Positions 1-42,351 of a stretch of 42,351 nucleotides of DNA are shown in pieces; position 1 is the stretch's first letter, and each line of letters opens with the position of its first letter. The notes under the pieces were generated by a model. The model had not been told where the DNA came from, made no database searches, and was given only the letters and a program-made list of their open reading frames with translations. Source of the stretch: Escherichia phage vB_EcoM-ep3. A program made the position numbers and the translations under genes. The stretch lies in sequence record NC_025430.1; one strand, given 5' to 3'.

Positions 1-27
1 AAAAAAAAACCCCGCCATAACGGCGGG
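1..27 (-). terminator. Rho-independent terminator ending the leftward early operon (downstream of ssb)
   Basis: Minus strand reads CCCGCC-GTTAT-GGCGGG (plus 11-27), followed by nine T (plus A1-A9). It lies 24 nt after the ssb stop. Confidence 0.8.
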
Positions 28-51
28 TTGATTACTTAGAATGATTTGGAA

Positions 52-537
52 TTAAAACGGGATGTCATCGTCAAAATCCATCGGCGGTTCGTTCGCTGGT
101 GGTTTCTGTTGGCCGCTGTGGGTTGGCTGCTGCGGCTTACCCCATCCGCCTTGCTGGCCGCCCTGGCTTTGCCCACCGGCCTGGTTATCGTTGGCCGCTG
201 ACAGCATCAACAACCGGCCATTCATGCCCACCACGATTTCAGTTGTGTAGCGATCAACGCCAGCCTGGTCCTGCCACTTGCGCGTTTGCAGCGCGCCTTC
301 AATGAACACCTTGCTGCCTTTGCGCAGGTACTGGCTGGCGATTTCTGCCAGCTTTCCGAAGATGACCACGCGGTGCCATTCCGTTTTTTCTTTCTTCTCC
401 CCTGTCTGCTTATCCTTCCAGGTTTCAGACGTGGCAATTGATAACTGCGCCACGCCGTTGCCGTTCGGCAGCGTGCGGAATTCTGGATCGTTGCCTAAGT
501 TGCCAATGATTTCTACTTTGTTCAGTGAACCGGCCAT
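52..537 (-). CDS. ssb: Single-stranded DNA-binding protein
   Basis: 161 aa. OB-fold N-terminal half ([12 protein letters not shown]...[14 protein letters not shown]), Gly/Gln-rich linker and canonical acidic tip DDDIPF. Confidence 0.95.
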
Positions 538-545
538 AATTGCCC

Positions 546-755
546 CTATTTACGTTTTAAGTGTGCGGCGTGGTCGTTGGCACAATCCGCATCGCAATAA
601 ATTTTCTTGCTGCCTTCCGGGAAATCTTCACCACAGTTCAGGCAGTAACCACGCGCAACAGCTTTAACCGCTGGTGCCTTCTGGAGATGCGCGGCAATCA
701 TCGCCGCGCGTTCCTGTTCTTCACGCTCGCAAGCGCGGTCAATATCATCAGCCAT
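546..755 (-). CDS. Small four-Cys zinc-ribbon protein (TraR/DksA-like)
   Basis: 69 aa with a CLNCG...CDADC pattern. It overlaps the upstream gene by 8 nt, consistent with translational coupling. Confidence 0.5.
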
Positions 756-1143
756 GTTCTGCCACCGTGCATTTTGGATGGTGGAAGCCGTCCTGGTGCT
801 GGCACACAGGGCAGCAATCGCGCGGCTGTTCGTTGTCGTTACCAGCTACCGGATGGCGGCCACGTTCCAGCGCGATGACCGCGCCAGCCAGGTAGTTGAT
901 TGCGCCTAACAGTTCCGCCACATCGCGGCCCGCTGGAAGGCGCTGTGATTCCTGCGCTTTCTTCGCTGCCTGGCCGAGTGCGAACCCTGGCCCGTACAGG
1001 TCAATCAGTTTTTGCATGGGCTGCTGGTCAAACGGCTTGTTTACCGCGTGACGTTCGTGGCCTTTGCCACTGGCAGCCTGCGCAAATGCCCGGTCAAGTA
1101 CATCGCGCAGTGATTCATATCCGTTAGCGGGTGGTCGTGTCAT
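748..1143 (-). CDS. Hypothetical early protein
   Basis: 131 aa with a conserved-looking GKGHERH segment and a C-terminal CCPVC...H..C cluster. It is operon-packed with its neighbours. No function can be assigned from sequence alone. Confidence 0.6.
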   Translation of the reverse strand: MTRPPANGYESLRDVLDRAFAQAASGKGHERHAVNKPFDQQPMQKLIDLYGPGFALGQAAKKAQESQRLPAGRDVAELLGAINYLAGAVIALERGRHPVAGNDNEQPRDCCPVCQHQDGFHHPKCTVAEHG

Positions 1144-1351
1144 TGTCGTTTGCTCCGATCATGTGTTTTGCTTCATACGCTTCCACGCTGGTGATGGAGT
1201 AGCGAACGCGTGAGCCAAATTTTGTATAGGCTGGCCCTTTACCTTTGTTGCGCCAGTTCGCCAGGGTTCCGGTGGTAACTGCGCCATTCCAGCGCAGCAC
1301 CAGTTCCTGTGGCGTCAGATACGTGCTTTGTTTCTGTGCCGGTTGTGCCAT
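1124..1351 (-). CDS. Excisionase/AlpA-family helix-turn-helix DNA-binding protein
   Basis: 75 aa. YLTPQELVLRWNGAVTTGTLANWRNKGKGPAYTKFGSRVRY matches the excisionase-type HTH pattern (lt..El...tl..wr..g.gP...G.rvrY). Confidence 0.6.
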   Translation of the reverse strand: MAQPAQKQSTYLTPQELVLRWNGAVTTGTLANWRNKGKGPAYTKFGSRVRYSITSVEAYEAKHMIGANDNDTTTR

Positions 1352-1364
1352 TTTTTACCCTTTC

Positions 1365-2354
1365 TTACTGTGCGCCGGTGCCCATCACCTGGCTGTTTAA
1401 ATCATCAACGTCCTGCGCATCGCCGTTTGCGTTGGCGCGCTGTTCGTCATATGCGCGGGCGGCTTGCAACAATGATTGTTTGAATTCATCGCCCAGCTTT
1501 TTGCGAATTGCTGGTGGGGTTTTGTCCCAGCATTCCTGCGTGTACTGCTCACCCTGTTCGGTAACGCCGCGCAGCTTGTTGCGGTAGGCTTCCACCTTCG
1601 GATCTAACTTGTTGCCACCCTGAACCCACTGACGCAGCGCCAAACCGTCCTGTGCGCTGATGTAGCCAGTTTCACGTCCTAAGATGCCGCGCAATTCTTC
1701 CGGGCACTTCATGACCTGCTGCGCGCTGCCAGAATCCCACATCATCAGGCTGGCGGTCATTTCAAACATCACGTTCTTTTCCGTCACCGGCATGATGCCT
1801 TGCGGTTCATATTCCGTTTTACCGTTGACCTTCACCAGTTTCACTTTTTCACGTGCGCGGATGCAGCAGATGATGTGCATGTTGGATTGCAGCAACGCGT
1901 TCATGAATCGCTTGTGTTCAGCCTTCGCACGGTTCCACTGTGGCTTCATCGGGTTGGCCAGGGTGGCGATTTCTTCGCAGCCGCCTGTTCCTTCCCATTC
2001 GTGCGAAATGCTATCAATCACCAGCACTTCAACGCCTGCCTGTTCAAATTCGCGGATGGCGTCAATGTATCGCTGCGGGCTGAAAGGCGGTTCTAAATCG
2101 CCAATCCAAAACGCGTCCGGGCGTTCTTTCAGTCCAAGTGATTCCTGGATTTTTTCATAAGTGTCATCACTGGCATACAGTGAGCCACGGCGGTTTTCAG
2201 TATCGAGAAAGCCAACCTTTGTGCCGTCACCGTTAGCCAGGCCATATGCCAGCATAAGTGCTGACAGGGTTTTGCCGCTGCCGCTGATACCTGCCAGGCC
2301 GATTACCAGGCGCGCGCCTTCACGTTCTGCCTTACGAATATTAATTACTGCCAT
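1365..2354 (-). CDS. RecA-like AAA ATPase, Sak4-type recombination/annealing protein
   Basis: 329 aa. Walker A GISGSGKT and Walker B-like VLVIDSISHEW. It lies between a nuclease and SSB, as in phage recombination modules. Confidence 0.7.
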   Translation of the reverse strand: MAVINIRKAEREGARLVIGLAGISGSGKTLSALMLAYGLANGDGTKVGFLDTENRRGSLYASDDTYEKIQESLGLKERPDAFWIGDLEPPFSPQRYIDAIREFEQAGVEVLVIDSISHEWEGTGGCEEIATLANPMKPQWNRAKAEHKRFMNALLQSNMHIICCIRAREKVKLVKVNGKTEYEPQGIMPVTEKNVMFEMTASLMMWDSGSAQQVMKCPEELRGILGRETGYISAQDGLALRQWVQGGNKLDPKVEAYRNKLRGVTEQGEQYTQECWDKTPPAIRKKLGDEFKQSLLQAARAYDEQRANANGDAQDVDDLNSQVMGTGAQ

Positions 2355-2381
2355 TGTTTTTAGTCTCTTAGGTGATGAAAA

Positions 2382-3524
2382 TTAAGCCGCACCAACCAGG
2401 TGGGCGTTTTTGTTGGCGTGCCACGCTGGCAGGCTGATGGTCTGGATTTTATCGCCGTATCCAGGCCAAACACCTGTGCGCACGCATTCAGCGTAGACAC
2501 GCAAATCATGCTGGTATTGTGCGCGGCCAATTTCTACGCCTTCGCTATCCAGTACATAAACACCAACTGCGTAAGGCGGTTTTTTCTCAACGGCGATAAA
2601 CGCAAAGTGTTTAGGATAACCACGCCAGAAATCAGGGCGGCAGCGGCACAGAACACCGGTCACCGGATCAGTCCAGTAAACTGATAATTCTGCTTTGCCT
2701 TCGTGCGGAGGCGTGCACTTGCCCTGTTCCAGAGCCAGACGCGTGCCGTCCATGTAGTATGCGTGTTGCACGTCATAGCGCCAGTTGGCGATTGATTTTG
2801 CGAACCCTTCCGGGCTGGCATCTTCGGTGGTTTTCAAGTCACCAATGATGTCTTTGACGTGGTGCAGGATAGCGAACGCTGCCGGATGATTCATTACCGC
2901 GTCACGCATGGCAAAAATTTGTTCAAACGCTTCCGGTGATAGCACTTTGCGTTCGCTGTTATTGCGCTGCCATTCTTCCAGCACATCTGACCACAGTGTG
3001 ACTTCAACGCCGTTGGCGCGCAGCAGGTTGGCCAGCTCATGACGGCTGCCGCTGGTGGATAGTTTGCCAGGACGGTCAATATTCAACTGGTTGATGATTT
3101 CTTTCAGGTCTGGCGCTTTCATCGCGTTAAGCTGTTCAGTAGTCCAGGTTTCAACAGGCTGGTTTTCCAGGATGCGTTCAACCAGTTCGCCTTTGTTGCC
3201 ACCAGTCAGCAGCTTAGGCAGGCGGCCTTCGTTCAGCTTGTTGACCATTTCCACCAGCACTTCACGGTCATCAATAGCATCAGGCACATCAGGACGGCGC
3301 AGCGCCAGGCAATAGGTTTTTGCGAATTCTTCCGGTTCAAGAATTGCCATATGCACAGCCGTGCCGATTTCCTGCGCTGGTGTTGGCGTGCGGTCATTAG
3401 CAGCAGTCACAACAGCGTTGTAGTGCATCGGGCTGCGGTGCACCAAATCCAGGCCAGATTTACTGATGCCTGGTCCGCCGTGGTATTCAGCGTTGGGAAT
3501 ACCTTCGTAAACTCCTGGTTTCAT
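2382..3524 (-). CDS. PD-(D/E)XK (Cas4/RecB-like) exonuclease
   Basis: Motifs IIGDLKTTED and QHAYY, with N-terminus MKPGVYEGIPNAEYHG. The start is placed at ATG 3524, 7 nt after a GAGG RBS. The ORF-track start at 3539 lacks an RBS. Confidence 0.7.
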   Translation of the reverse strand: MKPGVYEGIPNAEYHGGPGISKSGLDLVHRSPMHYNAVVTAANDRTPTPAQEIGTAVHMAILEPEEFAKTYCLALRRPDVPDAIDDREVLVEMVNKLNEGRLPKLLTGGNKGELVERILENQPVETWTTEQLNAMKAPDLKEIINQLNIDRPGKLSTSGSRHELANLLRANGVEVTLWSDVLEEWQRNNSERKVLSPEAFEQIFAMRDAVMNHPAAFAILHHVKDIIGDLKTTEDASPEGFAKSIANWRYDVQHAYYMDGTRLALEQGKCTPPHEGKAELSVYWTDPVTGVLCRCRPDFWRGYPKHFAFIAVEKKPPYAVGVYVLDSEGVEIGRAQYQHDLRVYAECVRTGVWPGYGDKIQTISLPAWHANKNAHLVGAA

Positions 3525-3575
3525 TATGTTACCTCGCAATTATTATTTAACATGAATTCGGATTAACTGCGGTGA

Positions 3576-3605
3576 ATTATGGCTGACGTGTTGTTATACT
3601 GTCAA
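3576..3605 (-). promoter_or_regulatory. Candidate leftward early promoter
   Basis: Minus strand TTGACA (3605-3600), 18-nt spacer, CATAAT (3581-3576). It lies about 50 nt upstream of the exonuclease start. Confidence 0.55.
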
Positions 3606-3703
3606 CTTATTTGTAACTAACATTGTTTAGATCAGCGTCACGCTCGCTAATCAACAAACCTTAGCTGTACATCAGCTATGCGTTTTTTGCACATCGCGGC
3701 TTG

Positions 3704-3715
3704 ATTGACGTCAAT
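3704..3715. promoter_or_regulatory. Perfect 12-bp palindrome ATTGACGTCAAT (possible operator)
   Basis: Self-complementary 12-mer 16 nt upstream of the -35 of the rightward promoter, in the divergent control region. Confidence 0.3.
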
Positions 3716-3730
3716 GAACATTACTACTGG

Positions 3731-3760
3731 TTGCAACGTCGCCATGTAGTAACATACAAT
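3731..3760 (+). promoter_or_regulatory. Candidate rightward early promoter
   Basis: TTGCAA (3731-3736), 18-nt spacer, TACAAT (3755-3760). It lies 38 nt upstream of the helicase ATG. Confidence 0.55.
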
Positions 3761-3797
3761 TGCGAATACTTTAAATGATGGCGAATGAACGATAATT

Positions 3798-5216
3798 ATG
3801 GGCGTAATACTTAGGGACTATCAATCCGACATTATCAATAAGGCGCGCCTTTCTATGCGGCGCAACCGCCGCGTGTTATTGCAGGCACCAACAGGCGCGG
3901 GCAAAACTGCGCTGGCGTCATACATGGCTGGGGAAACATCGGCCAAAGGCCAGCAGGTGTGGTTTATTTGCCACCGCGCTGAACTGGTATTACAGACCAG
4001 TTTGACATTCAGGAAGTTCGGCATTGACCACGGCTTTATTGCCGCAGGCTATCCCATGAACCTGCGCGCCGGGGTGCAGGTGTGCAGCATCGACACCCTG
4101 AAAAACCGCCTGCACACCCTGCCAGCTCCTAAGCTGGCCATCATGGACGAAGCGCACCACTGTGGCGCGGCTGGATGGGCGCGCGTCAACGCCTGGCTGT
4201 TCGAGAATGGCGCGTATGTAATCGGCCTGTCAGCCACGCCAAAGCGCCTGGACGGCACCGGCCTGGATGACCACTTTGATGACATCGTGTTGGGGCCATC
4301 GGTGCGCTGGCTGATGGATAACGGCCACCTGTCTGATTATCGCATGTTCTGCCCGGACATCCCTGACATGAAGGGTGTACGCAAACAGATGGGCGATTTC
4401 TCAAAAGGAGAAACCGCCGAGAAGATGGATAAGCCGAAACTAACCGGCAACATCATCAGCCACTGGCTGAAATACGCCAGGGGCATGAAAACGGTTGGCT
4501 TTGCGGTCAACATCGCGCACAGCCGCCACTTAACGCAGGCATTCATTGATTCAGGCATCCGCGCCGCGCACCTGGATGGCGGCACCGATAAGGCGGAACG
4601 CAAGCGCATCATTCAGGACTATGCCAACGACAACCTGGATGTGATTTTCAACGTGTCGCTGTTCGGTGAAGGTTTCGACCTGTCAGCTATCGCACAGACT
4701 GACGTGACGATTGACTGCCTGATTGACGCGCAGCCCACACAATCATTGTCGCTGGTTTTGCAGAAAGATGGCCGCGTGTTGCGACCGTCCAAAGGCAAAA
4801 CCGCCATCATCCTGGACCACGCAGGCAATGCGCTGCGTCATGGCTTCCCTGACGATGAACGGGAATGGTCACTGGCTGGCGATGATAGCGGCAGCAAATC
4901 CAGCAGTGCTGGTGGTCCACCGCCGCCAGTCATCTGCAAAGGCTGTTTCAACGCCATCCGCCGACCACTGCCGCCGAAGTGCCCGCACTGCCAGAAGGAA
5001 CTACAGGCCGAAGCCAAAGAAATTGAAGTGGCAGAAGGAGAACTGCGCGAAATGGACGAACGCGCCAAAGAAAGCCTGCGCGCCAAGATGAGGCGCGAGG
5101 AGGACGCTTGCAAGGATATTGGCGCACTTACTGCCCTGGCGATGAAACGCGGGCTGCCGAACCCATCAGGGTGGGCCATAGCGAAGATGGGTGGAAGAAG
5201 ATTTAAGCGCAAATAG
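3798..5216 (+). CDS. Superfamily-2 DEAD/DEAH-box DNA helicase with C-terminal zinc ribbon
   Basis: 472 aa. Motif I APTGAGKT, motif II MDEAHH, motif III SATP, motif VI QKDGRVLR, and C-terminal CKGC...CPHC. Confidence 0.85.
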   Translation: MGVILRDYQSDIINKARLSMRRNRRVLLQAPTGAGKTALASYMAGETSAKGQQVWFICHRAELVLQTSLTFRKFGIDHGFIAAGYPMNLRAGVQVCSIDTLKNRLHTLPAPKLAIMDEAHHCGAAGWARVNAWLFENGAYVIGLSATPKRLDGTGLDDHFDDIVLGPSVRWLMDNGHLSDYRMFCPDIPDMKGVRKQMGDFSKGETAEKMDKPKLTGNIISHWLKYARGMKTVGFAVNIAHSRHLTQAFIDSGIRAAHLDGGTDKAERKRIIQDYANDNLDVIFNVSLFGEGFDLSAIAQTDVTIDCLIDAQPTQSLSLVLQKDGRVLRPSKGKTAIILDHAGNALRHGFPDDEREWSLAGDDSGSKSSSAGGPPPPVICKGCFNAIRRPLPPKCPHCQKELQAEAKEIEVAEGELREMDERAKESLRAKMRREEDACKDIGALTALAMKRGLPNPSGWAIAKMGGRRFKRK

Positions 5217-5227
5217 TAGAGTAATTA

Positions 5228-5272
5228 ATAGGTATAACCGATTGGCGATATTTACCAAAGGAAATGTATAGT
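5228..5272 (+). promoter_or_regulatory. Conserved upstream element, copy A (ATAGGTATAACCGATT ... ATTTAC ... AAATGTATAG)
   Basis: 15/16 identity over the first 16 nt to 10480-10495, with further shared blocks downstream. It is intergenic, just 5' of gene 5321-5989. Confidence 0.4.
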
Positions 5273-5320
5273 TATTTCACCGGCACACAGGTGCCCAACA
5301 ACAAAAGAGGAAACACCCAA

Positions 5321-5989
5321 ATGGCACGTTTAACCGCTGCAATCCGTGATGGCATCATTGCCAACGCAATCAAAACCAAAGACTTTGCAGGCCGTGACAT
5401 GGCTATTGTTCAGAAGCGCGCTGATTTTGCTGAACGTCTGCGCAAGTATGCGCTTGCACAATATGGCCTTACTGATGCGCGCCTTATTGAAATTAAAAAG
5501 CAGATTGAAGAACTGCAAAACGAAGTTAAGCACGAAGGAGCAAGGTTCGTTCGAATTACTTTTGACTCAACTAACCGTGCTTGGGATGTGAACCTGGCAG
5601 GACAGGCGCGCAGGCTTTATCTTGATGGTACTTGTTCAGGGGAAAGCGTAAAACCGCTTTATAGTGATTCACGCGTAGAATACAGCGACGATAAAATTAC
5701 TCCACATTTCCATGAATCTGATTTCACAGTGCGCGATCCTAAATGGCGCGAAGAACTGGACGCCATTGACCTGGAAGCGGCGCAACTGCGTGAAGAATAC
5801 AACACGCTTAAATCAACACTGGCAGCGACAATTTCAGGATTCACGACGGTGGAAAAACTTCTGGAAGCCTGGCCAGACGCGAAAGAACTGATTCCAGAAA
5901 CAACGCCGATTGCTAAACATCCAGGAACAGGCATTGCGCTGTCGGTAGCTGAACTTAACGCGCTGTGTGGAATTCCTACCGGAAAATAA
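5321..5989 (+). CDS. Hypothetical protein, possibly Nmad5-like (nucleotide-modification-associated)
   Basis: The start is moved to ATG 5321 (MARLTAAIRDGIIANAI...), behind an AGAGGA RBS. The N-terminal pattern M.LT..IRD.I recalls Nmad5-family proteins; this is from memory and unverified. Confidence 0.45.
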   Translation: MARLTAAIRDGIIANAIKTKDFAGRDMAIVQKRADFAERLRKYALAQYGLTDARLIEIKKQIEELQNEVKHEGARFVRITFDSTNRAWDVNLAGQARRLYLDGTCSGESVKPLYSDSRVEYSDDKITPHFHESDFTVRDPKWREELDAIDLEAAQLREEYNTLKSTLAATISGFTTVEKLLEAWPDAKELIPETTPIAKHPGTGIALSVAELNALCGIPTGK

Positions 5990-6032
5990 CAAACAATGCC
6001 CGGTGCGCCGGGCAGTTCTCACAGGTGACACC

Positions 6033-6425
6033 ATGAAAAAACTTATCATCGCCGCTTTCATCCTGGCGGCCACCAGCGTCACTGCACAGGCGCGCGAATG
6101 TCTGCCAGGCATGGACCCGGCAAAAGACAACTGCCAGGTGACGGAAGAACAGGAACCGGCACCACAGCCGGAATTACAGGACGTTGACCAGGTTTACTAC
6201 TGCCTGGAACTGCAAAAAATCGCCGTCAAAATCGCTGAACTGCGCGACAAAGGCGCAGGCGAACAGGGCGTGGTCACACTGCTGGCTAACAACAACCAGA
6301 ACCGCATCATTTGGGTGGCGCGCCAGGTGTTCTGGCCGCAATCGGCAAGCCTTCGTCCTGAACAAATCGGCCTGCGTGTGTGGATGCGCTGCAATTCTGG
6401 TGAATATCCGGGAGCCGTCAAATGA
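6033..6425 (+). CDS. Secreted (periplasmic) small protein
   Basis: The start is moved to ATG 6033. Signal peptide MKKLIIAAFILAATSVTAQA|RE with an AXA cleavage motif. The mature part has four Cys. Confidence 0.6.
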   Translation: MKKLIIAAFILAATSVTAQARECLPGMDPAKDNCQVTEEQEPAPQPELQDVDQVYYCLELQKIAVKIAELRDKGAGEQGVVTLLANNNQNRIIWVARQVFWPQSASLRPEQIGLRVWMRCNSGEYPGAVK

Positions 6426-6529
6426 AACTGTTCCTGCGTGGCGTCCTGGCGATGCTGCATGATGAATTATTCTGGCTGCTGGTGGTGCTGGCCGCCTGTG
6501 CTTACCTGGTGGGGGTTATCTATGGCTAA
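6422..6529 (+). CDS. 35-aa hydrophobic membrane peptide (below the ORF-track cutoff)
   Basis: MKLFLRGVLAMLHDELFWLLVVLAACAYLVGVIYG. Its ATG overlaps the upstream stop (ATGA) and its TAA overlaps the next ATG (ATGGCTAA). Confidence 0.5.
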   Translation: MKLFLRGVLAMLHDELFWLLVVLAACAYLVGVIYG

Positions 6530-6932
6530 CAAAGAACACGCGTTGCAGAACGCAATCCGCAACGCACTGGCGGGTCGCTGCCTGCTGTTTCGCGCCAACG
6601 TGGGCAAGGCGTACACCAGCAATGACGTGGTGAAGGTGCCGCGCCAGATGCCGGTTGTGATGGGGCCGCGTGACGTGCTGCTGAAAAACGCCAGGCCGTT
6701 TGACACCGGGCTGCCGCCAGGGTTTTCCGACCTGTTCGGCCTGGTCAGTGTAGAAATCACACCTGACATGGTGGGGCAGAAAGTGGCCATCTTCACCGGC
6801 CTGGAAGTCAAAGACGGTGCCCGCGTGTCACCATTGCAGCGAAACTTCATCAACGCGGTGAACGACAACGGGGGCCGCGCCGGTGTTGTGCGGTCAGTGG
6901 ATGACGCTGAAAAACTGGTGTTCGGAAAATGA
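6522..6932 (+). CDS. VRR-NUC domain nuclease (PD-(D/E)XK, resolvase-like)
   Basis: The start is moved to ATG 6522 (MANKEHALQNAIRNAL...). Motifs GFSDLFGL and GLEVK fit the VRR-NUC D...E.K signature. Confidence 0.65.
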   Translation: MANKEHALQNAIRNALAGRCLLFRANVGKAYTSNDVVKVPRQMPVVMGPRDVLLKNARPFDTGLPPGFSDLFGLVSVEITPDMVGQKVAIFTGLEVKDGARVSPLQRNFINAVNDNGGRAGVVRSVDDAEKLVFGK

Positions 6933-7135
6933 GCATAAAACACATAGCAGCCGACGCACTGCGCTACAGCGTCGAAACCGGACAATCAATGATGGAGCGG
7001 CTAAACCATGATGACAATAGAAAGCATTCGCAGACTGTTTGCAGAAGCACTGGTGACCAGGAACCACATCACGTTCCTGGCGGCCAAAACGGCAATGTGG
7101 AATCTGAACCGTTACGGCATGTTGACGGCGATTGA
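6929..7135 (+). CDS. Doubtful ORF (alternative to 7008-7172)
   Basis: It has an ATGA overlap with the VRR-NUC stop, and the first ~26 codons look coding. After ~7008 the third-position G+C drops (about 43% by hand count) and the product becomes low-complexity. Confidence 0.3.
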   Translation: MSIKHIAADALRYSVETGQSMMERLNHDDNRKHSQTVCRSTGDQEPHHVPGGQNGNVESEPLRHVDGD

Positions 7136-7172
7136 CGTGGAAAACCTGAAAAAAACGTGGGGTGTTGAATGA
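7008..7172 (+). CDS. Small hypothetical protein (54 aa, below the ORF-track cutoff)
   Basis: MMTIESIRRLFAEALVTRNHITFLAAKTAMWNLNRYGMLTAIDVENLKKTWGVE. It is CTG-rich with about 63% G+C at third positions (hand count). Its stop overlaps the next ATG (ATGA at 7169). Confidence 0.5.
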   Translation: MMTIESIRRLFAEALVTRNHITFLAAKTAMWNLNRYGMLTAIDVENLKKTWGVE

Positions 7173-7405
7173 ATATTTTCAAAGTAGCAATGCAGCGGCT
7201 GGTTGACGCCTGGAAGTTATCAGCCAGGGAAATCAGCCTGGGTTTTCAAATGGCGCTGGTGCGCGCTGGCTGGCGTCCAAAGGTGCGGTCAATGCAAGTG
7301 GTGCTGGACTATCCGAAGCCAGGGCCACGCCGTTCACGCTTCACCGGCATTGCAGCCATGCGCCGTGAAGCACGCCGCAAACGTAACCGGAGGCACGCAG
7401 CATGA
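7169..7405 (+). CDS. Hypothetical protein with a strongly basic C-terminus
   Basis: 78 aa with translationally coupled overlaps at both ends. The C-terminus is RREARRKRNRRHAA. Confidence 0.6.
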   Translation: MNIFKVAMQRLVDAWKLSAREISLGFQMALVRAGWRPKVRSMQVVLDYPKPGPRRSRFTGIAAMRREARRKRNRRHAA

Positions 7406-7626
7406 ACCCGGTAGACTTCATCAAAAAACAAGTCATGGCCGAACTGGTGAAGCAAGGCGCATCACCTGGCACAGCGCAGCACGCGGCTGACTACGCGGCG
7501 CAACAGTACCGCACCACGTCAGCCATCGGCAAAGACCCGTTCGCTGAACTGATACGCCTGGCAGGCGCAATGGCCATGAAGCACCAGGCCGGTTTCCGCT
7601 TCGTGATGCCGCGCGCATCAAAATGA
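7402..7626 (+). CDS. Hypothetical protein
   Basis: 74 aa. It has an ATGA overlap with the upstream gene and genome-typical codon usage. Confidence 0.6.
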   Translation: MNPVDFIKKQVMAELVKQGASPGTAQHAADYAAQQYRTTSAIGKDPFAELIRLAGAMAMKHQAGFRFVMPRASK

Positions 7627-7648
7627 CGTAAGATTATTTCAAAAGGTA

Positions 7649-7677
7649 TTTACTTTCGGAAATGCGCCCTGTACTAT
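7649..7677 (+). promoter_or_regulatory. Candidate sigma70-type promoter
   Basis: TTTACT (7649-7654), 17-nt spacer, TACTAT (7672-7677). It lies 30 nt upstream of the HTH gene start. Confidence 0.5.
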
Positions 7678-7706
7678 GGGCGCATTGTTATTACGAGGCT
7701 ATTACT

Positions 7707-7895
7707 ATGGACGAAAGGACCGAACGACTTCACAACATTATGGCTGAACATGGCTTAACCTGCCGCGACGTTGGCCGTTTACTTGGGCGCACTGAACAAA
7801 CGGTGCTTATCTGGCGCTGTAAGGGCGGGAAAGTCATTCCGACCCACCAGCTTGAATTGCTTGAACTGAAACTGAACGCGCAGGCGGAAAAATGA
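7707..7895 (+). CDS. Small Cro/Xre-like helix-turn-helix regulator
   Basis: The start is moved to ATG 7707, 8 nt after a GAGG RBS. The HTH segment is LTCRDVGRLLGRTEQTVLIWRCKG. Confidence 0.55.
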   Translation: MDERTERLHNIMAEHGLTCRDVGRLLGRTEQTVLIWRCKGGKVIPTHQLELLELKLNAQAEK

Positions 7896-8122
7896 ACGCC
7901 TGTACCTGGCAGCCAACCACAGTGACGCTGCAAGATGGGCGCGAAGTGTTGAGCGATAGCCGGGAATGGTTGCTGGAATGCGAAGCCAAATACGTTCTGA
8001 ATCAGCCAACCATTGAAGCACGGCGCACCCTGCTGGCAGCGATAGAAAAACGGCGCGGCGCAACAGCCCGCGAAGAACTAGAACAACGCGCACTGGCCAT
8101 ATGGCGCGCTAACAGGCCATAA
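7892..8122 (+). CDS. Hypothetical protein
   Basis: 76 aa with an ATGA overlap to the upstream gene. It immediately precedes the primase-helicase. Confidence 0.6.
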   Translation: MNACTWQPTTVTLQDGREVLSDSREWLLECEAKYVLNQPTIEARRTLLAAIEKRRGATAREELEQRALAIWRANRP

Positions 8123-8134
8123 AATCGGGGTTCT

Positions 8135-10444
8135 ATGAGTGCACAACAAAACTATAAGGATTTGACCGAACAGGAAATTGCAGAAGCACTTTCCTACATC
8201 GACGCCGGTTGCGACCGTGAAACATGGGTGCGCATGGCGATGGCGGTTAAATCGGAACTAGGCGACGGCGGTTTCACCGTCTGGAATGACTGGTCACGCC
8301 AGTCTGACAAGTACAACAGCAAAGACGCGCGCGACACCTGGAAATCAGTGAAGCGTCACGGCGGCATTGGCATTGGCACCCTGATTGGTGAGGCGCAGCA
8401 GTTCGGCTTTTCCCTGAACGATGCAGAACGCACGCCGCTGACAGCGGAAGAAATCGACGCACGCAAGCGCAAGCGCGAAGCCGAAGAAAAGGCAGAGCAG
8501 CAGCGCCGCGCCGAACGTATGGCGCAGGCAGCCGAACAGGCGCGCAACATATGGGAATCAGCCACCGAACTGGAAGGCGATGAACACCCCTATTTGCAGC
8601 GCAAGCAGGTGCAGGCGTTCGGCCTGCGCGTTGGGCGGTTCTGGACCGAAAAGCGCAGCATTGATGGTGCGCTACTGGTTCCTGTGCGTAACATTGACGG
8701 GCAGATCACCAGCTTGCAGGCCATCTTCCCGAACGAAAACCCACAGCTAGGGCGTGACCGTGATTATTTGCCTGGCGGCCAGAAGCGCGGATGCTTCCAC
8801 GTCATAGGCGGCAAGCCGACTGGCGGAAGCCCGGTTATTGTCATCTGTGAGGGCTATTCAACCGGCGCGTCAATCCACCAGGCAACCGGCTACTGCGTTG
8901 TAGTGGCGTTTGATGCCGGTAACGTTCCGACCGTGGCCAAGTTGATGCGCCAGCAGTTCGGACGCGCAACAATTGTTGTGGCAGCCGATAACGACCAGTG
9001 GCACGAAGATGGCAAGCAAAATGATGGCGTTCACTACGCGCGCCAGGCCGCAACCACATGCGGTGGCCTGCTGGTGGTTCCGAAGTTCGCCGCATTAAGC
9101 GACAAGCCGACCGACTTTAACGACCTGCACAACCTGCAAGGGCTGGCAGAAGTTAAGCGGCAGATTAACGCCGCAATACCTGAACCGGCAAATGACAACT
9201 TTCTGCCGCTGGATGCAACGGTCAACCCGTTCATGTACCCGCACATGAGCCACCAGCAAAAGCCATTAAGCACCTGGGAAAACCTGGAATGGCTGCTGGA
9301 ACAGTACGGCATCACGGCGCGATATAACGAAATCAGCAAAGATGTGGTGGTGACCATTCCAGGGCGTGACTACGGCGTTGACGCTGCGGCCAACTGTTCC
9401 CTGGCGGAAGTTTCCAGCCTGTGTGCCCGCAACGGTATGCCAAAAGGTGATGTGGGCGACTACATCAAGCTGATTGGCGTGGCCAACCGTTACAACCCGG
9501 CTGCTGATTTCATCACGTCACGGCCATGGGATGGCGTCAGCCGCATTTATGACCTGGTTGACACCCTGACCACGCCGGAAGGCTTTGACCGCAGCCTGGT
9601 GCTGATGATGGTGCGCCGCTGGCTGATTTCTGCCGTGGCTGCCGTCATGAAGCCAACCGGGTTCTGGTCCAAAGGCGTCCTGGTGTTACAGGGTGACCAG
9701 TCATTGGGGAAAACGTCCTGGTTTAAAGCACTGCTGCCGCCGACCATGCGCGACCTGGTGAAAGATGGCGCGACCATCGACCCTAGCAACAAAGACAGCG
9801 TGACCACCGCGATTGGCCACTGGATGGTTGAGCTGGGCGAACTAGATGCAACGTTCCGCAAGGCTGACATTGCCAGGCTGAAATCCTTCATCAGTTCTGA
9901 CGTGGACATGCTGCGCCGCCCTTATGACCGGCTTGAATCGAAGTACCAGCGCCGAACGGTGTTTTTTGCGTCAGTGAACCCCAAACACTTCCTGGCCGAT
10001 GACACCGGGAACGTTCGCTGGTGGACCATTCCGGTGACCGGCGTGAACTACGCCCACGACATCGACACGCAACAGTTATGGGCAGAAGTGGCGCAACTGT
10101 ACCGTGACGGCGAACGCTGGTGGCTGGATCGTGATGAAGAAGCCATGCTGGAAGGCGTCAACAAGGAACACGAATCCATTGACCCGGTAGAGGAAATGAT
10201 ACTGGCGCGCTTTGAGTGGGGCAGCGAACGCATCAGCGCCTACCGCGAACATACCGCCAGCCAGGTGTTGCAGGAAATCGGATTTGATAAGCCGAACAAG
10301 TCACAGGCCACGCATTGCAGTAACGTGCTGCGCAAGCTGACCGGGCAGGAACCGCGCAAGACGAAAAACGGGCGGTTCTTCAACCTGCCGCCGAAGGTGT
10401 TGCAGCCGGATTACCGGCGACCAGATGACAATTCACCGTTTTGA
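8135..10444 (+). CDS. Bifunctional DNA primase-helicase (PriCT-2 / Toprim / VirE-D5-like P-loop)
   Basis: 769 aa. N-terminal PriCT-2-like segment (ETWVRMAMAVKSELGDGGFTVWNDWS), Toprim (VIVICEGYSTGASI...VVAADND) and C-terminal Walker A GDQSLGKT. Confidence 0.9.
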   Translation: MSAQQNYKDLTEQEIAEALSYIDAGCDRETWVRMAMAVKSELGDGGFTVWNDWSRQSDKYNSKDARDTWKSVKRHGGIGIGTLIGEAQQFGFSLNDAERTPLTAEEIDARKRKREAEEKAEQQRRAERMAQAAEQARNIWESATELEGDEHPYLQRKQVQAFGLRVGRFWTEKRSIDGALLVPVRNIDGQITSLQAIFPNENPQLGRDRDYLPGGQKRGCFHVIGGKPTGGSPVIVICEGYSTGASIHQATGYCVVVAFDAGNVPTVAKLMRQQFGRATIVVAADNDQWHEDGKQNDGVHYARQAATTCGGLLVVPKFAALSDKPTDFNDLHNLQGLAEVKRQINAAIPEPANDNFLPLDATVNPFMYPHMSHQQKPLSTWENLEWLLEQYGITARYNEISKDVVVTIPGRDYGVDAAANCSLAEVSSLCARNGMPKGDVGDYIKLIGVANRYNPAADFITSRPWDGVSRIYDLVDTLTTPEGFDRSLVLMMVRRWLISAVAAVMKPTGFWSKGVLVLQGDQSLGKTSWFKALLPPTMRDLVKDGATIDPSNKDSVTTAIGHWMVELGELDATFRKADIARLKSFISSDVDMLRRPYDRLESKYQRRTVFFASVNPKHFLADDTGNVRWWTIPVTGVNYAHDIDTQQLWAEVAQLYRDGERWWLDRDEEAMLEGVNKEHESIDPVEEMILARFEWGSERISAYREHTASQVLQEIGFDKPNKSQATHCSNVLRKLTGQEPRKTKNGRFFNLPPKVLQPDYRRPDDNSPF

Positions 10445-10450
10445 ATAATA

Positions 10451-10476
10451 ACCCGCTTCGGCGGGTTTTGTTTTTA
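10451..10476 (+). terminator. Rho-independent terminator after the primase-helicase
   Basis: ACCCGC-TTCG-GCGGGT followed by TTTTGTTTTT. Confidence 0.8.
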
Positions 10477-10479
10477 TTG

Positions 10480-10521
10480 ATAGGTATAAACGATTATATC
10501 ATTTACATAAGTAAATATAGA
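10480..10521 (+). promoter_or_regulatory. Conserved upstream element, copy B (ATAGGTATAAACGATT ... ATTTAC ... AAATATAG)
   Basis: Partner of 5228-5272. It lies directly after a terminator and upstream of the methyltransferase gene. Confidence 0.4.
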
Positions 10522-10541
10522 ATTCATCTATCGAAAACGAG

Positions 10542-10565
10542 ACAAACCAAACAAACCAAACAAAG
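10542..10565 (+). repeat. C/A-rich tandem repeat (ACAAACCAA x2 + ACAAAG) forming the methyltransferase leader
   Basis: The sequence is GACAAACCAAACAAACCAAACAAAG, ending 2 nt before ATG 10568. There is no Shine-Dalgarno sequence in this leader. Confidence 0.7.
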
Positions 10566-10567
10566 TA

Positions 10568-11545
10568 ATGGGTAGCATTGTGAATAAATACGAATTGCAT
10601 TTAGGTGATTGCCTGGAAGTTATGAAGTCTATTCCAGCCGGTAGCGTTGATTTGGTTCTGTGTGATCCGCCGTATGGCACCGCTGGCGGAATGGGAAAGG
10701 GTGAAGAACGCTATTCACGAATTGCGAACGCTGAATGGGATAACGCTATTTCTCCGCAGGCCATTTTTGAAGAATGCAACCGCGTTTTGCGAACTAACGG
10801 CGCTCTTATTCTGTTCAGCCAGGAACCTTACACCAGCAAGTTAATCACAGCGGCGCATGGAAATCTGCCTTTCAGTTATCGACTAATGTGGCTGAAAGAC
10901 CATTTCTCTAACTCGCTGTTGGTAAATAAAGCGCCTGTTTCATACTTTGAAGATTTAGTGGTGTTCTTCAAGAAATATGACACGCTGGCACAGCATCCGC
11001 TAAGGGATTATGCCAAAAAAATCATGGAATACATTGGCAGAAATATAAAGCAGATAAACACTGATTTAGGTCACAGGCGCGCGGAACACTTTTTTTATGT
11101 TGAATCAACGCAGTTCGGGCTGTGTACTGAAAAGACATACAACCAGATTATTGCGCACTATGGGCTTAGTGTGTGTGACTGGCTTATGACTTATGCTGAA
11201 ATGTTAGAAATTGACCGCAGGTTTGCCCGCAGGTTTAACCTGGCGGATGGTGCAAAATACAAATCTAACGTTCTTCAGTACAAAAAGGATTATACCGGCC
11301 TTCACCCAACACAGAAGCCGGTAGCACTGCTGGCTGACATCATCAGGACATATTCAAACCCTGGCGAAACGGTTCTAGATTTCACTATGGGGAGCGGGTC
11401 AACAGGAGTCGCCTGCATCAATGAAGGCCGTAACTTCATAGGAATTGAACTTGATGAAACCTATTTCCAGACAGCGCAGGGGCGCATAATGGAAGCAGCA
11501 GCCGCAAACGATAACCAGGCAAGTAGCAATTCTGTTGTAGCATAA
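10568..11545 (+). CDS. DNA methyltransferase (N6_N4 family, beta class; DPPY motif suggests N6-adenine)
   Basis: 325 aa. Motif IV LCDPPYGT lies near the N-terminus and motif I DFTMGSGSTGVAC near the C-terminus. The region is visibly more A+T-rich than its neighbours. Confidence 0.85.
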   Translation: MGSIVNKYELHLGDCLEVMKSIPAGSVDLVLCDPPYGTAGGMGKGEERYSRIANAEWDNAISPQAIFEECNRVLRTNGALILFSQEPYTSKLITAAHGNLPFSYRLMWLKDHFSNSLLVNKAPVSYFEDLVVFFKKYDTLAQHPLRDYAKKIMEYIGRNIKQINTDLGHRRAEHFFYVESTQFGLCTEKTYNQIIAHYGLSVCDWLMTYAEMLEIDRRFARRFNLADGAKYKSNVLQYKKDYTGLHPTQKPVALLADIIRTYSNPGETVLDFTMGSGSTGVACINEGRNFIGIELDETYFQTAQGRIMEAAAANDNQASSNSVVA

Positions 11546-11592
11546 CCACCATTCCCCACCAGTGTGGGCCAATAAAAACGAGGTAACACCCG

Positions 11593-12420
11593 ATGAAACA
11601 AGTAACGATTGACAACGTGCGCGAGCGCATAGCGGAACTGGAAATGGTCAACAGCCACGGTGAACTGTCACTGCGCGGCGAATTTGAACTGGCGTGTTTG
11701 CGGATGCTGGCCGATTCAATGGGCGGCGTTGATGATGACGTGCGCAACGTGGTGGCCCTGCTGGAAAACAACGAATGGGCCGAGCACTGCACTAAAACAG
11801 AGCTTGGCCAGCGCCTGGAAAGCGAAATAACCCGCCTGGTTGGGGACGTGCAGCCAGTGCCGGTGGTAAGCGATGCTGACCCATCACTAAACGCCATGAT
11901 GCGTGCGCTTGATGCGTTCTATGCTGATGACTATGTGCCGGAACGTGCCATGCTGGCAGCTTTCAGAATCCTGCTGGCGGATGTGCGTGAAAAGCCAGCG
12001 CCGGTGGTAACTGATGATAGGCTGCTGGAAAACCTTGAAACGCGCATCAAAAGCCTGGAAATCGGTGAACGCAAAGGCGCATTGAGCACGCATCAGGAAA
12101 TCAGCCTTAAGGCGTATCGCCTGACTGTCCAGTGTCTGCGTTCGTCTGCCATCAGTGATGAAACAGACAACACCGCGCAGCAGTTCGAATCGTTGGCTGG
12201 CATCAATGCGAACAAACATCATGACCAGTGGGTGAATTGCAGCGAAAGGCTTCCAGATCGCTTCCGTGACGTTCCTGTGATGCTTTCTGATGGTTCCCAG
12301 CGAGTTGGGCGCATCAATCATAAAGATACCTGGCTGATTGCCAGTTACCACCATACAAAGCACCAATATACAGGCGACGTTGTTATGTGGTTCGACACGC
12401 CTAATCCCACCAGCGAGTGA
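11593..12420 (+). CDS. Hypothetical protein with C-terminal DUF551-like domain
   Basis: 275 aa with a GAGGT RBS. The C-terminus WVNCSERLPD...VMWFDTPNP fits the DUF551 pattern (W....RLP......W.P.P). Confidence 0.6.
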   Translation: MKQVTIDNVRERIAELEMVNSHGELSLRGEFELACLRMLADSMGGVDDDVRNVVALLENNEWAEHCTKTELGQRLESEITRLVGDVQPVPVVSDADPSLNAMMRALDAFYADDYVPERAMLAAFRILLADVREKPAPVVTDDRLLENLETRIKSLEIGERKGALSTHQEISLKAYRLTVQCLRSSAISDETDNTAQQFESLAGINANKHHDQWVNCSERLPDRFRDVPVMLSDGSQRVGRINHKDTWLIASYHHTKHQYTGDVVMWFDTPNPTSE

Positions 12421-12749: not shown

Positions 12750-12755
12750 ACACTA

Positions 12756-12778
12756 ACCGCCTTCGGGCGGTTTTTTAT
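12756..12778 (+). terminator. Rho-independent terminator
   Basis: ACCGCC-TTCG-GGCGGT followed by TTTTTTATT. Confidence 0.8.
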
Positions 12779-12838
12779 TGCGCAAAAGATGACAAGTATG
12801 ACAAAATAACAACGTCACCAATAACAGAGGAATTCATC

Positions 12839-13120
12839 ATGATTGAACAAAAGCTAGACCGCATCATTGAACTGCTGGAAATCATCGCGGAAGCACAACC
12901 GAAACCGCGCGTTAGTCGTAGTCAAATCAGTGATGCAAAGAGCATTATCGTTTCGCACCGAGAACAACTGAGAGGAAAGCGCATCACGTTTGGTGAATTC
13001 TGTGAAATCATTGGCGTGGAGAATTCAAAGCAAAACCGATTAAAGTTTGGTGCTGCAATGACTGAGGCTGGAGTCAAACAATACAGAACAAAAAACGCAC
13101 GTTATTATTTATTTGCATGA
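12839..13120 (+). CDS. Hypothetical protein (93 aa)
   Basis: The start is moved to ATG 12839, behind an AGAGGA RBS. The ORF-track start at 12680 would read through the terminator at 12756-12778. A GTCACC core (12814-12819) sits just upstream. Confidence 0.6.
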   Translation: MIEQKLDRIIELLEIIAEAQPKPRVSRSQISDAKSIIVSHREQLRGKRITFGEFCEIIGVENSKQNRLKFGAAMTEAGVKQYRTKNARYYLFA

Positions 13121-13140: not shown

Positions 13141-13164
13141 AGCGCCTTAATGGCGCTTTTTTTG
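13141..13164 (+). terminator. Rho-independent terminator ending the early rightward region
   Basis: AGCGCC-TTAAT-GGCGCT followed by TTTTTTGTTT. Confidence 0.75.
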
Positions 13165-13188
13165 TTTATGAGCGACTCAATAAAAAAG

Positions 13189-13448
13189 TTGGTCACCGTA
13201 GTCACCTGGTAGTCACCGCTTAAACCAATGATATATATACGAAATGACCAAGTGACCAAGGGAGACAAGGAAATAAAAGATTTTAAAAGGTGACAAAAGC
13301 ATTGAGCGCATTAGTACCTAACAGCAACTTTATGAAAACATGGTCGAGTTGGTCACCAAGCCCATAAAAACGGCGCTTTTTCCTTAAAAATCAAGGTGAC
13401 CGAGAAAAACACCGCTTGTCTCCCTGTAGTCACCTATTTCTGGTCACC
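13189..13448. repeat. Iteron-like cluster of GGTNACC / GTCACC cores with A/T tracts
   Basis: GGTNACC at 13191, 13351, 13395 and 13442. GTAGTCACC at 13198, 13209 and 13426. Tandem TGACCAAG at 13245 and 13253. GGTGAC at 13289. Flanking inverted repeat GGGAGACAAG (13260-13269) / CTTGTCTCCC (13415-13424). Confidence 0.8.
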
Positions 13449-13469
13449 GTTCATCTTTTCGGCTACAAT
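13441..13469 (+). promoter_or_regulatory. Candidate promoter reading into the Mor-like/lysis genes
   Basis: TGGTCA (13441-13446, overlapping the last iteron), 17-nt spacer, TACAAT (13464-13469). Confidence 0.5.
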
Positions 13470-13507: not shown

Positions 13508-13942
13508 ATGGAATTACCGCGCACTGTGCAGGAAATAGCTGACGTTATTGGCCGTGAACGTGCGCTATATCTTATCGGACAACTACCAAAATTGTGGGTG
13601 CCATCGCAGCAGTACCACAAAGTAATTTTGTATGTGCCAAAGCGGATTCGGCCCAATGACCCCCTGGTGAAAATTCTTGGATGGAGTGACGCCAGCAAGA
13701 TGGTGCAGCACTTCGGTGGTGAAATGCTTCACCCGGCTAATTGCGAATACATTTACCGCCGTTTCATCCACAGCAGCATCAAGCGGATGCACAGCGAAGG
13801 AATGGACGCAAAAGCCATTGCGGAACTGCTGGACGTTTCAGAACGCACCGTGAAGCGGCACTGCACTGACAAACCCCACAAAGACACATCACCTGCAAAT
13901 GACAACACTCCCGAACGACTACTAACCGCTATGGGGCAATGA
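13508..13942 (+). CDS. Mor/C-family-like transcriptional activator (C-terminal HTH)
   Basis: 144 aa. HFGGEMLHPANCEYIYRRFIHSSIKRMHSEGMDAKAIAELLDVSERTVKRH parallels the Mu Mor core (LGGGQVYIP...RD..I...F.G.N..EL....GV....VY). It sits at the early/late boundary. Confidence 0.55.
   Translation: MELPRTVQEIADVIGRERALYLIGQLPKLWVPSQQYHKVILYVPKRIRPNDPLVKILGWSDASKMVQHFGGEMLHPANCEYIYRRFIHSSIKRMHSEGMDAKAIAELLDVSERTVKRHCTDKPHKDTSPANDNTPERLLTAMGQ
13868..13884 (+). promoter_or_regulatory. Late-motif copy 1 (15/17: GACAAACCCCACAAAGA)
   Basis: Inside the 3' end of the Mor-like gene. AACACT follows 19 nt downstream (13904-13909). It ends 62 nt before the holin ATG. Confidence 0.5.
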
Positions 13943-25178: not shown

Positions 25179-25181
25179 CCT

Positions 25182-25198
25182 GACAAACCCCAAGAAGA
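25182..25198 (+). promoter_or_regulatory. Late-motif copy 4 (exact GACAAACCCCAAGAAGA)
   Basis: Intergenic, 3 nt after the gpV stop. CATCAT follows 20 nt downstream (25219-25224). It ends 33 nt before the gpW ATG. Confidence 0.5.
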
Positions 25199-25211
25199 TA
25201 AACCATCACCC

Positions 25212-31401: not shown

Positions 31402-31404
31402 ACG

Positions 31405-31421
31405 GACAAACCCCAAGAAGA
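31405..31421 (+). promoter_or_regulatory. Late-motif copy 5 (exact GACAAACCCCAAGAAGA)
   Basis: Intergenic, 3 nt after the terminator T-run. GACCAT follows 19 nt downstream (31441-31446). It ends 72 nt before the sheath ATG. Confidence 0.55.
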
Positions 31422-31493
31422 AGCCACGCACGGTTCCTGCGACCATCACACTGCGAATTTTCACTGTGTGCACAGTTAATAGGAAACCGAATA

Positions 31494-42311: not shown

Positions 42312-42320
42312 CAAAGGCAA

Positions 42321-42345: not shown

Positions 42346-42351
42346 TGGTTA

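Follow-up and report, generated by a model that had tools for sequence, protein, structure and literature searches.

The DNA analysed here (the window, 42,351 nucleotides) is essentially the whole genome of a myovirus that belongs to Jilinvirus, a genus in the subfamily Iiscvirinae. Over the 8-kb stretch used for searching (3700-11700), it is 97.6% identical to Escherichia phage vB_EcoM_ECOO78 (ECOO78), and Bas97, ECO1230-10, Alux-21, PT1, KA2-1 and Arya also match this stretch, with falling coverage and identity. Genes run leftward from 52 to 3539 and rightward from the helicase gene (3798-5216) onward. The large open reading frames encode primase, helicase, terminase, portal, capsid, tail and tape-measure proteins. 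No phage-encoded RNA polymerase, which promoters of the T7 or SP6 type would require, was found among them, so host polymerase must transcribe the genome. A literature search found no promoter-mapping paper for Jilinvirus or Iiscvirinae, and no start-site, expression or binding data for any member of the group.

Two intergenic positions in the rightward arm carry a similar stretch of DNA. Site 1 starts 9 nt past the helicase stop codon (5214-5216), while the primase gene, with its stop codon at 10442-10444, is followed by an intrinsic terminator and directly after that by site 2. The genes and signals around the two sites are as follows.

5305-5313, ribosome-binding site AAGAGGAAA of the Nmad5-family gene
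5321-5989, plus strand, Nmad5-family gene (Pfam Nmad5, E = 1.7e-36), true start at ATG 5321; the cargo of slot 1 in this genome
10450-10476, plus strand, intrinsic terminator after the primase gene, insulating site 2 from upstream transcription
10568-11545, plus strand, DNA methyltransferase gene (Pfam N6_N4_Mtase, E = 2e-30); the cargo of slot 2 in this genome
12755-12780, plus strand, terminator closing the site-2 transcription unit

A first-pass annotation, made from the sequence, had placed both copies in intergenic DNA after a helicase or primase gene and ahead of candidate DNA-modification genes. The positions agree, and the Pfam matches bear out both gene assignments.

The resemblance between the two sites was first noticed as a pair of 16-mers, ATAGGTATAACCGATT (5228-5243) and ATAGGTATAAACGATT (10480-10495), which are identical at 15 of 16 bases. 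Both are followed by ATTTAC (5250-5255 and 10501-10506) and TATAG (5267-5271 and 10516-10520), and all of these blocks lie where they had been reported. When the two intergenic regions are aligned locally, the score is 34; shuffled sequences give 16 +/- 2.5 (maximum 29), and none of 2000 reached 34. Twenty-two copies, two from the window and the rest from relatives, were combined into a profile, which makes exactly two full matches in the 42-kb window, both on the plus strand (5222-5296, E = 2e-17; 10474-10540, E = 1e-10). The resemblance is thus beyond chance, which had been judged an unlikely source at the outset. The shared element is wider than the originally reported interval of 5228-5272: it spans about 5225-5279 at site 1 and about 10477-10530 at site 2, and similarity between the sites stops near the predicted start.

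Read 5' to 3', the element appears to be composed of an upstream box, a weak -35, a 16-bp inverted repeat, a -10 and a CA start region.

5225-5241, plus strand, upstream box of site 1, TTAATAGGTATAACCGA, at about -54 to -38, holding most of the 16-mer
5242-5247, plus strand, weak -35-like hexamer TTGGCG of site 1 (4/6 against TTGACA; 19-nt spacer), assigned from sequence
5250-5265, plus strand, inverted repeat ATTTAC-CAAA-GGAAAT of site 1, filling the promoter spacer
5267-5272, plus strand, predicted -10 hexamer TATAGT of site 1 (5/6 against TATAAT, with A2 and T6)
5279, plus strand, predicted start of site 1, the A within TTTCAC
5282-5295, plus strand, 5' leader hairpin GGCAC-ACAG-GTGCC of site 1
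10477-10493, plus strand, upstream box of site 2, TTGATAGGTATAAACGA
10494-10499, plus strand, TTATAT, the -35 equivalent of site 2, a poor match (2/6) lying 18 nt before TAGAAT
10501-10516, plus strand, inverted repeat ATTTAC-ATAA-GTAAAT of site 2, a perfect palindrome
10518-10523, plus strand, predicted -10 hexamer TAGAAT of site 2 (5/6), with TATAGA at 10516-10521 as an alternative
about 10526-10530, plus strand, predicted start of site 2

This arrangement suggests a sigma-70-type promoter, with hexamers and starts that are predicted. In every aligned copy, a -10 with A2 and T6 is placed 0-3 nt past the repeat; in relatives, the hexamer at the same place reads TATTAT, TAATAT, TATAGT or GATAAT, always with A2 and T6. 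A conserved ATTTCA or CACA context follows 6-8 nt past the -10, and in relatives a conserved structured segment starts 5 nt beyond that point. The -35 is much less regular. TTGGnn is retained at site 1 in relatives and in the Pseudomonas-type copies, and the corresponding position at site 2 reads TTAGAA or TTGGAA in relatives. The original remark that no consistent -35 is visible was therefore a fair one, given 4/6 matches at site 1 and 2/6 at site 2. This weakness of the -35 is why a consensus promoter scan called neither site 1 nor site 2.

The last two T's of the 16-mer open the -35-like hexamer, and the remainder of the 16-mer is upstream box. The TATAA(C/A) motif inside the 16-mer, which had been put forward as the -10, is therefore misplaced: it lies upstream of the -35, its sixth position is never T, relatives show TTTAAA, TAGAAA or TACAAA instead, and it is absent from Pseudomonas-type copies. 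The predicted -10 is the TATAG(T) block farther 3'. Several other assignments were compared by eye and set aside: TTGATA as -35 with (C/T)ATTTA as -10, where position 6 is not T; a sigma-54 promoter, for which the GG/GC spacing is wrong and the GG is missing at site 2; an IHF site, whose flank is mismatched; TyrR boxes, whose half-sites are oppositely oriented; and a minus-strand promoter, for which a TATAAT is present only at site 2 of some genomes.

The upstream box has the shared form TT(G/A)ATAGGTATAAMCGA. Across 20 copies from 10 enterobacterial phages its consensus is ATTgATAGGTa.AAaCgaTT, and the central part of the element reads aTTTAC.tAaGtAAA. The GATAG core and the A-rich tract of the box are also found in the copies of Pseudomonas, Burkholderia and Ralstonia phages. 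UP elements are A/T-rich stretches between -40 and -60; the box is AT-rich, with an AAA tract near -42, and its GATAGG falls outside the UP consensus AAAWWTWTTTTnnnAAA when the two are compared by eye. In Enterobacter phage Arya the box is unchanged despite an altered repeat, so its conservation does not depend on that of the repeat. It may act like a UP element, or a second, conserved factor may bind there.

The ATTTAC and AAAT blocks had been described as separate features. They are the two arms of one inverted repeat, whose general form is ATTTAC-N4-G(T/G)AAAT (16 bp). The repeat has a third copy in the window, where it occurs by itself, lacking the upstream box.

7648-7663, plus strand, inverted repeat ATTTAC-TTTC-GGAAAT of site 3, its left arm overlapping the -35 TTTACT (7649-7654)
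7664-7683, plus strand, hairpin GCGCCC-TGTACTAT-GGGCGC (-17.8 kcal/mol, z = -3.3), its loop holding the site-3 -10
7707-7895, plus strand, gene for a 62-aa Cro/XRE-like helix-turn-helix (HTH) protein (phrog_14341, E = 6e-19), the candidate repeat binder

The predicted promoter of site 3 has a 17-nt spacer and a -10 TACTAT (7672-7677), and it precedes the HTH gene, which stands immediately behind site 3 in all relatives. Against an expectation of 0.08, the window contains three exact instances of TTTACNNNNGKAAA (5251, 7649 and 10502), all of them intergenic, and every Jilinvirus locus has it at the matching three places. The site-3 repeat is equally placed in all relatives, with a degenerate right arm in the Pseudomonas-type phages. 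The stem of the 7664-7683 hairpin is kept through compensatory changes in Arya, MQ-4 and L045, more distant contigs included.

The sequence of the repeat differs between lineages, and it does so in both arms and at all three sites. Arya carries perfect TTTAA-N4-TTAAA repeats at the three sites (TTTAA-ATTC-TTAAA at site 3), and these are the sole matches to that pattern in 15.6 kb. The Ralstonia phage phiRSP has TTCAC-N4-GTGAA at three sites; the Burkholderia phage Mica is of the phiRSP type with imperfect arms, and the repeat of Mano is T(T/A)TAC-N4-GTATA. When perfect 5-N4-5 repeats are counted with no motif specified, only the operator half-site reaches three occurrences in UViG_3300045988, Arya, MQ-4 and phiRSP, a number reached in 0-2 of 200 shuffles of those four genomes. 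The same count with one arm mismatch allowed was uninformative, being swamped by GC-rich coding sequence. Arms that shift together at unlinked promoters are expected from a dimeric DNA-binding protein with lineage-specific specificity. Across genera, conservation within the promoter is highest in the spacer. As an RNA hairpin, the repeat is worth just -2.4 to -2.6 kcal/mol (z = -0.3 at site 1), a value so weak that the repeat is best regarded as a DNA site. These properties point to an operator for a phage-encoded dimeric regulator, as judged from sequence. No conserved copy of the repeat was found in the PL/PR region. A weak repeat-like site at PL (3562-3577, two mismatches) was considered as an operator and rejected: it lies within a block that is conserved in any case, and CI-bearing relatives, Arya included, have nothing corresponding to it.

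The most likely binder of the repeat is the 62-aa Cro/XRE-like protein encoded behind site 3, as sequence comparison and a predicted structure suggest. When the window and Arya are compared, none of the shared early proteins has diverged as far (57% identity, against 61-92% for the others). Its recognition helix varies with operator class, reading EQTVLIWRC in the window, VSTVRVWRC in Arya and AQTVRVW(C/R)C in Mica and phiRSP, and the EQTVLIWRC form is invariant in 18 homologues of 68-93% overall identity. An AlphaFold2 model (pLDDT 89) predicts a four-helix Cro/XRE fold, whose best matches in the PDB are HipB, CapH-N, C.EcoT38IS, C.BclI, Aca1/Aca10, 434 Cro and P2 C. A sequence search of the PDB returned nothing significant for the HTH protein or for the late activator. 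A single-residue code for operator choice, in which Q in the recognition helix changes to S, is contradicted by contig L057, which has the S-T-V helix of Arya yet carries TTTAC repeats. The link between protein and operator rests on a few lineage switches, with no simple residue code.

Two other proteins were considered as binders. The window, ECOO78, ECO1230-10 and KA2-1 have no CI-like repressor and keep the repeats intact, so CI is not the binder. A 75-aa HTH_17 (MerR-like) protein (1124-1351, minus strand) has an HTH core that is identical in Arya and the window, and it therefore cannot account for the switch in Arya.

The first-pass annotation had proposed looking for the element in related phages and had listed a lack of conservation there among the findings that would count against it; the element is in fact well preserved. 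It is kept at both syntenic positions in all Jilinvirus relatives examined (ECOO78, Bas97, ECO1230-10, Alux-21, PT1, KA2-1, Arya and two uncultured genomes). Beyond the genus, the order of blocks (GATAG box, A-rich tract, TTGGnn, inverted repeat, -10, ATTTCA) is recognisable in Serratia phage MQ-4, Pseudomonas phages of the PPpW-3 and Persinger types, Mica and phiRSP. In these phages it follows the primase terminator and, in most cases, the helicase gene as well. A profile made from the four Pseudomonas-type copies alone does not retrieve the window sites significantly (best E of about 1), so the cross-genus link is one of synteny and block order and not a sequence statistic. A search of contigs with a primase profile returned mostly distant primases, and L017, the one locus inspected, has no element after its primase gene. 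Overall, the initial idea of a promoter or an operator is supported in the form of a conserved regulatory element that looks like a promoter and an operator combined.

The genes behind the two sites are far more variable than the element itself. At site 1, the window and ECO1230-10 have the Nmad5 gene, ECOO78 has a gene for a 96-aa protein, and Bas97 has a small open reading frame followed by an Nmad5-like gene whose start matches that of the window. At site 2, the window and ECOO78 have the methylase, and ECO1230-10 and KA2-1 have small genes. In Bas97, Alux-21, PT1 and Arya, site 2 is followed by a non-coding segment of about 166-184 nt that opens at the predicted start; in KA2-1, UViG_3300029526 and MQ-4, this segment lies behind site 1 instead. 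The same segment behind different sites means that cargo has moved between the two promoter copies. The window matched no Rfam family at gathering scores, and for the non-coding cargo of relatives Rfam gave no match that was credible. Because cargo varies and moves between sites, the element marks positions in the phage backbone and not DNA-modification genes. Co-regulation of two such genes, as suggested at first, is incidental to this genome: the promoter copies of relatives precede unrelated genes or the non-coding, RNA-like segment.

The explanation favoured here, and considered fairly probable, is that the two sites are paralogous promoter-operator modules of the backbone, of host-RNA-polymerase type, whose repeat is bound by the 62-aa protein and which head interchangeable cargo. 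Sites 1 and 2 would be copies of one regulatory module of Jilinvirus and related Iiscvirinae. Host RNA polymerase of the sigma-70 type would transcribe from it, with the 16-bp repeat nearly filling a long spacer, and the 62-aa Cro/XRE-like protein would bind that repeat as its operator. The repeat over the -35 of the HTH gene's own promoter suggests autoregulation. Filling the spacer, as at sites 1 and 2, or covering the -35, as at site 3, is the position of a repressor, which favours negative autoregulation. As the HTH protein accumulates, it may bind within the core promoter and shut all three promoters, leaving a pulse of expression. PR and the three promoters would split the rightward early arm into consecutive units: the helicase gene; slot 1, with a nuclease gene and small genes; the HTH gene with the primase gene; and slot 2. 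The genes behind sites 1 and 2 would be interchangeable accessory cargo. Sequence comparison directly shows the repeat, where it lies, how it is conserved, the matched changes of its half-sites and the variation and exchange of cargo, whereas the promoter hexamers and starts, the binder, the repressive sign and any part played by the upstream box are inferred.

The main rival concerns the sign of regulation. In this alternative, the repeat binder is a MerR-like activator that re-aligns a poor -35 with the -10 across an over-long spacer, so that the promoters are switched on. Spacers of 18-19 nt between a TTGG-type -35 and the -10 are found in most copies, namely at site 1 of the window and of MQ-4 and in ECOO78, ECO1230-10, UViG33997 and Mica; the repeat is centred in the spacer, and the -35 hexamers are weak enough for both sites to escape the consensus scan. 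Long spacers and weak -35 hexamers leave room for an activating mode of this kind. However, several site-2 copies can be read with spacers of 15-17 nt, and at site 3 the repeat overlaps the -35 of a promoter with a normal 17-nt spacer, where a repressor would sit. The candidate binder has a Cro/XRE fold and not the winged helix and coiled coil of MerR, and the sole MerR-like protein is the 75-aa HTH_17 protein, whose HTH core stayed the same in Arya despite the altered repeat there. Activation by a MerR-like protein is accordingly rather unlikely.

A little less likely again is that the sites are two plain paralogous promoters with no dedicated regulator, in which the shared blocks reflect descent by duplication or gene conversion together with generic features. 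Promoters in general do have a -10, AT-rich DNA upstream and a conserved start context, but common descent alone does not explain why, in Arya and phiRSP, the two arms of the repeat have changed in concert at three separate loci, why the repeat recurs at site 3 with none of the rest of the element, or why the spacer is the part best conserved across genera.

The variability of the cargo could also mean that the element is chiefly recombinational, a boundary or site-specific target for cassette exchange whose promoter features are secondary. This is quite improbable. Cargo behind both sites differs among close relatives, the 166-184-nt segment changes site, and the halt of between-site similarity near the predicted start would suit such a boundary; against this, the sites have no associated recombinase, the 3' end of the cassettes is not marked by a matching element, and the third repeat is located at a non-variable gene. 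Homologous recombination between the promoter copies suffices for the exchanges, which therefore read as a side-effect and not as the function of the element. Action at the RNA level, with the hairpin serving as a processing site, attenuator or terminator part in read-through transcripts, is scarcely credible: the arms of the repeat could pair into a 6-bp hairpin and site 2 adjoins a terminator, but the hairpin is of the marginal stability given above, the site-2 repeat would rarely be transcribed downstream of so strong a terminator, the box, repeat, -10 and start hold a fixed order in the DNA, and no Rfam family matches anywhere in the window.

The favoured reading, of paralogous promoter-operator modules under the 62-aa protein, lays out the operons of the rightward early arm in a form that can be tested, in which PR is followed by same-operator promoters with predicted starts at about 5279, 7684 and 10528. 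It names a candidate regulator, for which the window and Arya proteins offer a specificity swap. Additionally, it marks two hot-swappable slots that collect accessory genes, possibly with anti-restriction roles.

A more ambitious extension, possible but doubtful, is a circuit common to the Iiscvirinae in which one HTH regulator resembling Aca and C proteins gates two plug-in slots, the promoter doubles as a homology patch for cargo exchange, and a second factor reads GATAGG. In this extension, the slots would carry cargo for DNA modification or anti-defence and, in some phages, a structured RNA of about 160 nt, under operator specificities TTTAC, TTTAA and TTCAC. If such a circuit exists, the regulator and its operators would be a portable marker for new anti-defence genes.

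The module of the favoured reading is classical in kind and has not been described before for these phages. Its value therefore lies in local annotation and as a lead for gene discovery, and it introduces no new principle. Like the Cro and CI operators of lambda, 434 and P22 and those of P2 C, the repeats are short, lie inside core promoters and occur at several promoters per genome, and a small HTH protein, here a candidate dimeric binder, is encoded nearby. As with phage immunity specificities, the operator is lineage-specific and changes together with the candidate protein, whose predicted fold resembles 434 Cro and P2 C. Unlike the Cro and CI systems, the repeats stand at three internal rightward promoters and not at divergent PL and PR, the HTH gene lies in the middle of an early operon, and phages that have lost CI and integrase retain the system. 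Nor does the sequence of the candidate protein significantly match any Cro or CI protein of solved structure.

Aca (anti-CRISPR-associated) repressors and the C (controller) proteins of restriction-modification systems are small dimers with an XRE-like HTH. They recognise inverted repeats in promoters, control their own genes and set the timing of accessory, anti-defence or modification genes. Some of the best fold matches of the candidate protein are to Aca1, Aca10, C.EcoT38IS and C.BclI, and the cargo in this genome includes a methylase and an Nmad5 gene. However, the likeness is one of fold (Foldseek E = 0.1-0.5) and not of sequence membership. The regulator gene also lies outside both cargo slots and shares no operon with the cargo, and one regulator would serve three promoters.

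MerR-type promoters, such as those of merT, copA, zntA and soxS, combine an over-long spacer with a centred inverted repeat and poor -35 and -10 hexamers. The elements described here share a spacer of 18-19 bp with an inverted repeat at its centre and a poor -35, but the spacer does not keep to 19-20 bp throughout: it is 19 nt at site 1 and in several relatives, and readings of 15-18 nt are possible at site 2. No MerR-family regulator with the right variation is encoded, and the site-3 repeat lies over the -35.

Site 2 has the layout of a moron. It is bracketed by the terminators at 10450-10476 and 12755-12780, has its own putative promoter, and holds cargo that differs in Bas97, ECO1230-10, KA2-1 and Arya. 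In contrast to morons, the promoter is a conserved feature of the backbone with a putative phage operator and is not imported with each gene, and site 1 has no upstream terminator. In T4-like phages, PeSL repeats, which consist of an early promoter plus a stem-loop, flank variable genes. The present element differs from PeSL in having two copies per genome, another sequence and architecture, and an operator; as with PeSL, a repeated early-promoter element marks hyperplastic regions of the genome and could mediate the shuffling of accessory genes.

A sequence of the form (T/G)GACAAACCCCA(A/C)(G/A)AAGA is repeated five times in the late region of the window, always on the + strand:

13867-13888, + strand, copy of the repeated late-region sequence
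18140-18161, + strand, copy of the same sequence
20879-20900, + strand, copy of the same sequence
25181-25202, + strand, copy of the same sequence
31404-31425, + strand, copy of the same sequence
13508-13942, gene for a Mor-like late activator

Downstream of each copy, at a distance of ~50-110 nt, comes a late-gene start or a module boundary; one of the five is located directly 3' of a terminator. The Mor-like late activator may use this repeat as its late-promoter box. The long intergenic stretch 5' of the activator gene (13180-13450) is densely populated by GGTCACC, AGTCACC, and GGTGACC repeats, which could be iterons or operators. A promoter-like site, TGGTCA-17-TACAAT, is also found at 13441-13469.

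The predicted promoter of the HTH gene, which encodes a Cro/XRE-like protein, carries its -10 element in the loop of a hairpin, GCGCCC-TGTACTAT-GGGCGC (7664-7683). This hairpin has a folding energy of -17.8 kcal/mol. Compensatory changes preserve its stem in Arya, MQ-4, and distant contigs, and the structure may be the terminator of the upstream unit, overlapping the next promoter.

The leader of the methylase gene consists of a CA-rich repeat, ACAAACCAAACAAACCAAACAAAG (10536-10566), and no Shine-Dalgarno sequence precedes the ATG at 10568. This hints at unusual translation initiation or at the use of another start codon, GTG 10580.

Further downstream, an ORF of 93 amino acids (12839-13120) with no family match stands isolated between terminators at 12755-12772 and 13141-13157. 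It is a second moron-like unit, a moron being an autonomous promoter-gene-terminator unit within a phage genome. Both ends of the window (2-34 and 42319-42351) carry a direct repeat, 88% identical, that includes a terminator-like hairpin, CCCGCC-ATAA-CGGCGGG. The repeat may stem from the cutting of the record, or a terminator may have been duplicated.

At 3540-3797 the window has no gene for a cI-like repressor, and the same is true of ECOO78, ECO1230-10, and KA2-1. Bas97, Arya, and MQ-4 possess this gene in the interval between exonuclease and helicase, where repeats of the ACGGTTA / TAACCGT type are also found.

Several relatives additionally contain a GC-rich non-coding segment of ~160 nt that is absent from the window, its 5' end coinciding with the predicted start of a promoter of the site-1/site-2 type, the elements that follow the helicase and primase genes:

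about 10838-11000 in Bas97 (L002), ~160-nt non-coding segment; also in L004, L005, L006, Arya (L007), L041, and MQ-4 (L115)

This segment lies behind site 1 in some phages and behind site 2 in others. A search of Rfam returned no match for it. RNAalifold predicts 43 pairs, 10 of which show compensatory changes, along with a GNRA-type loop. Possible identities for the segment are a small RNA of the phage and a structured leader.
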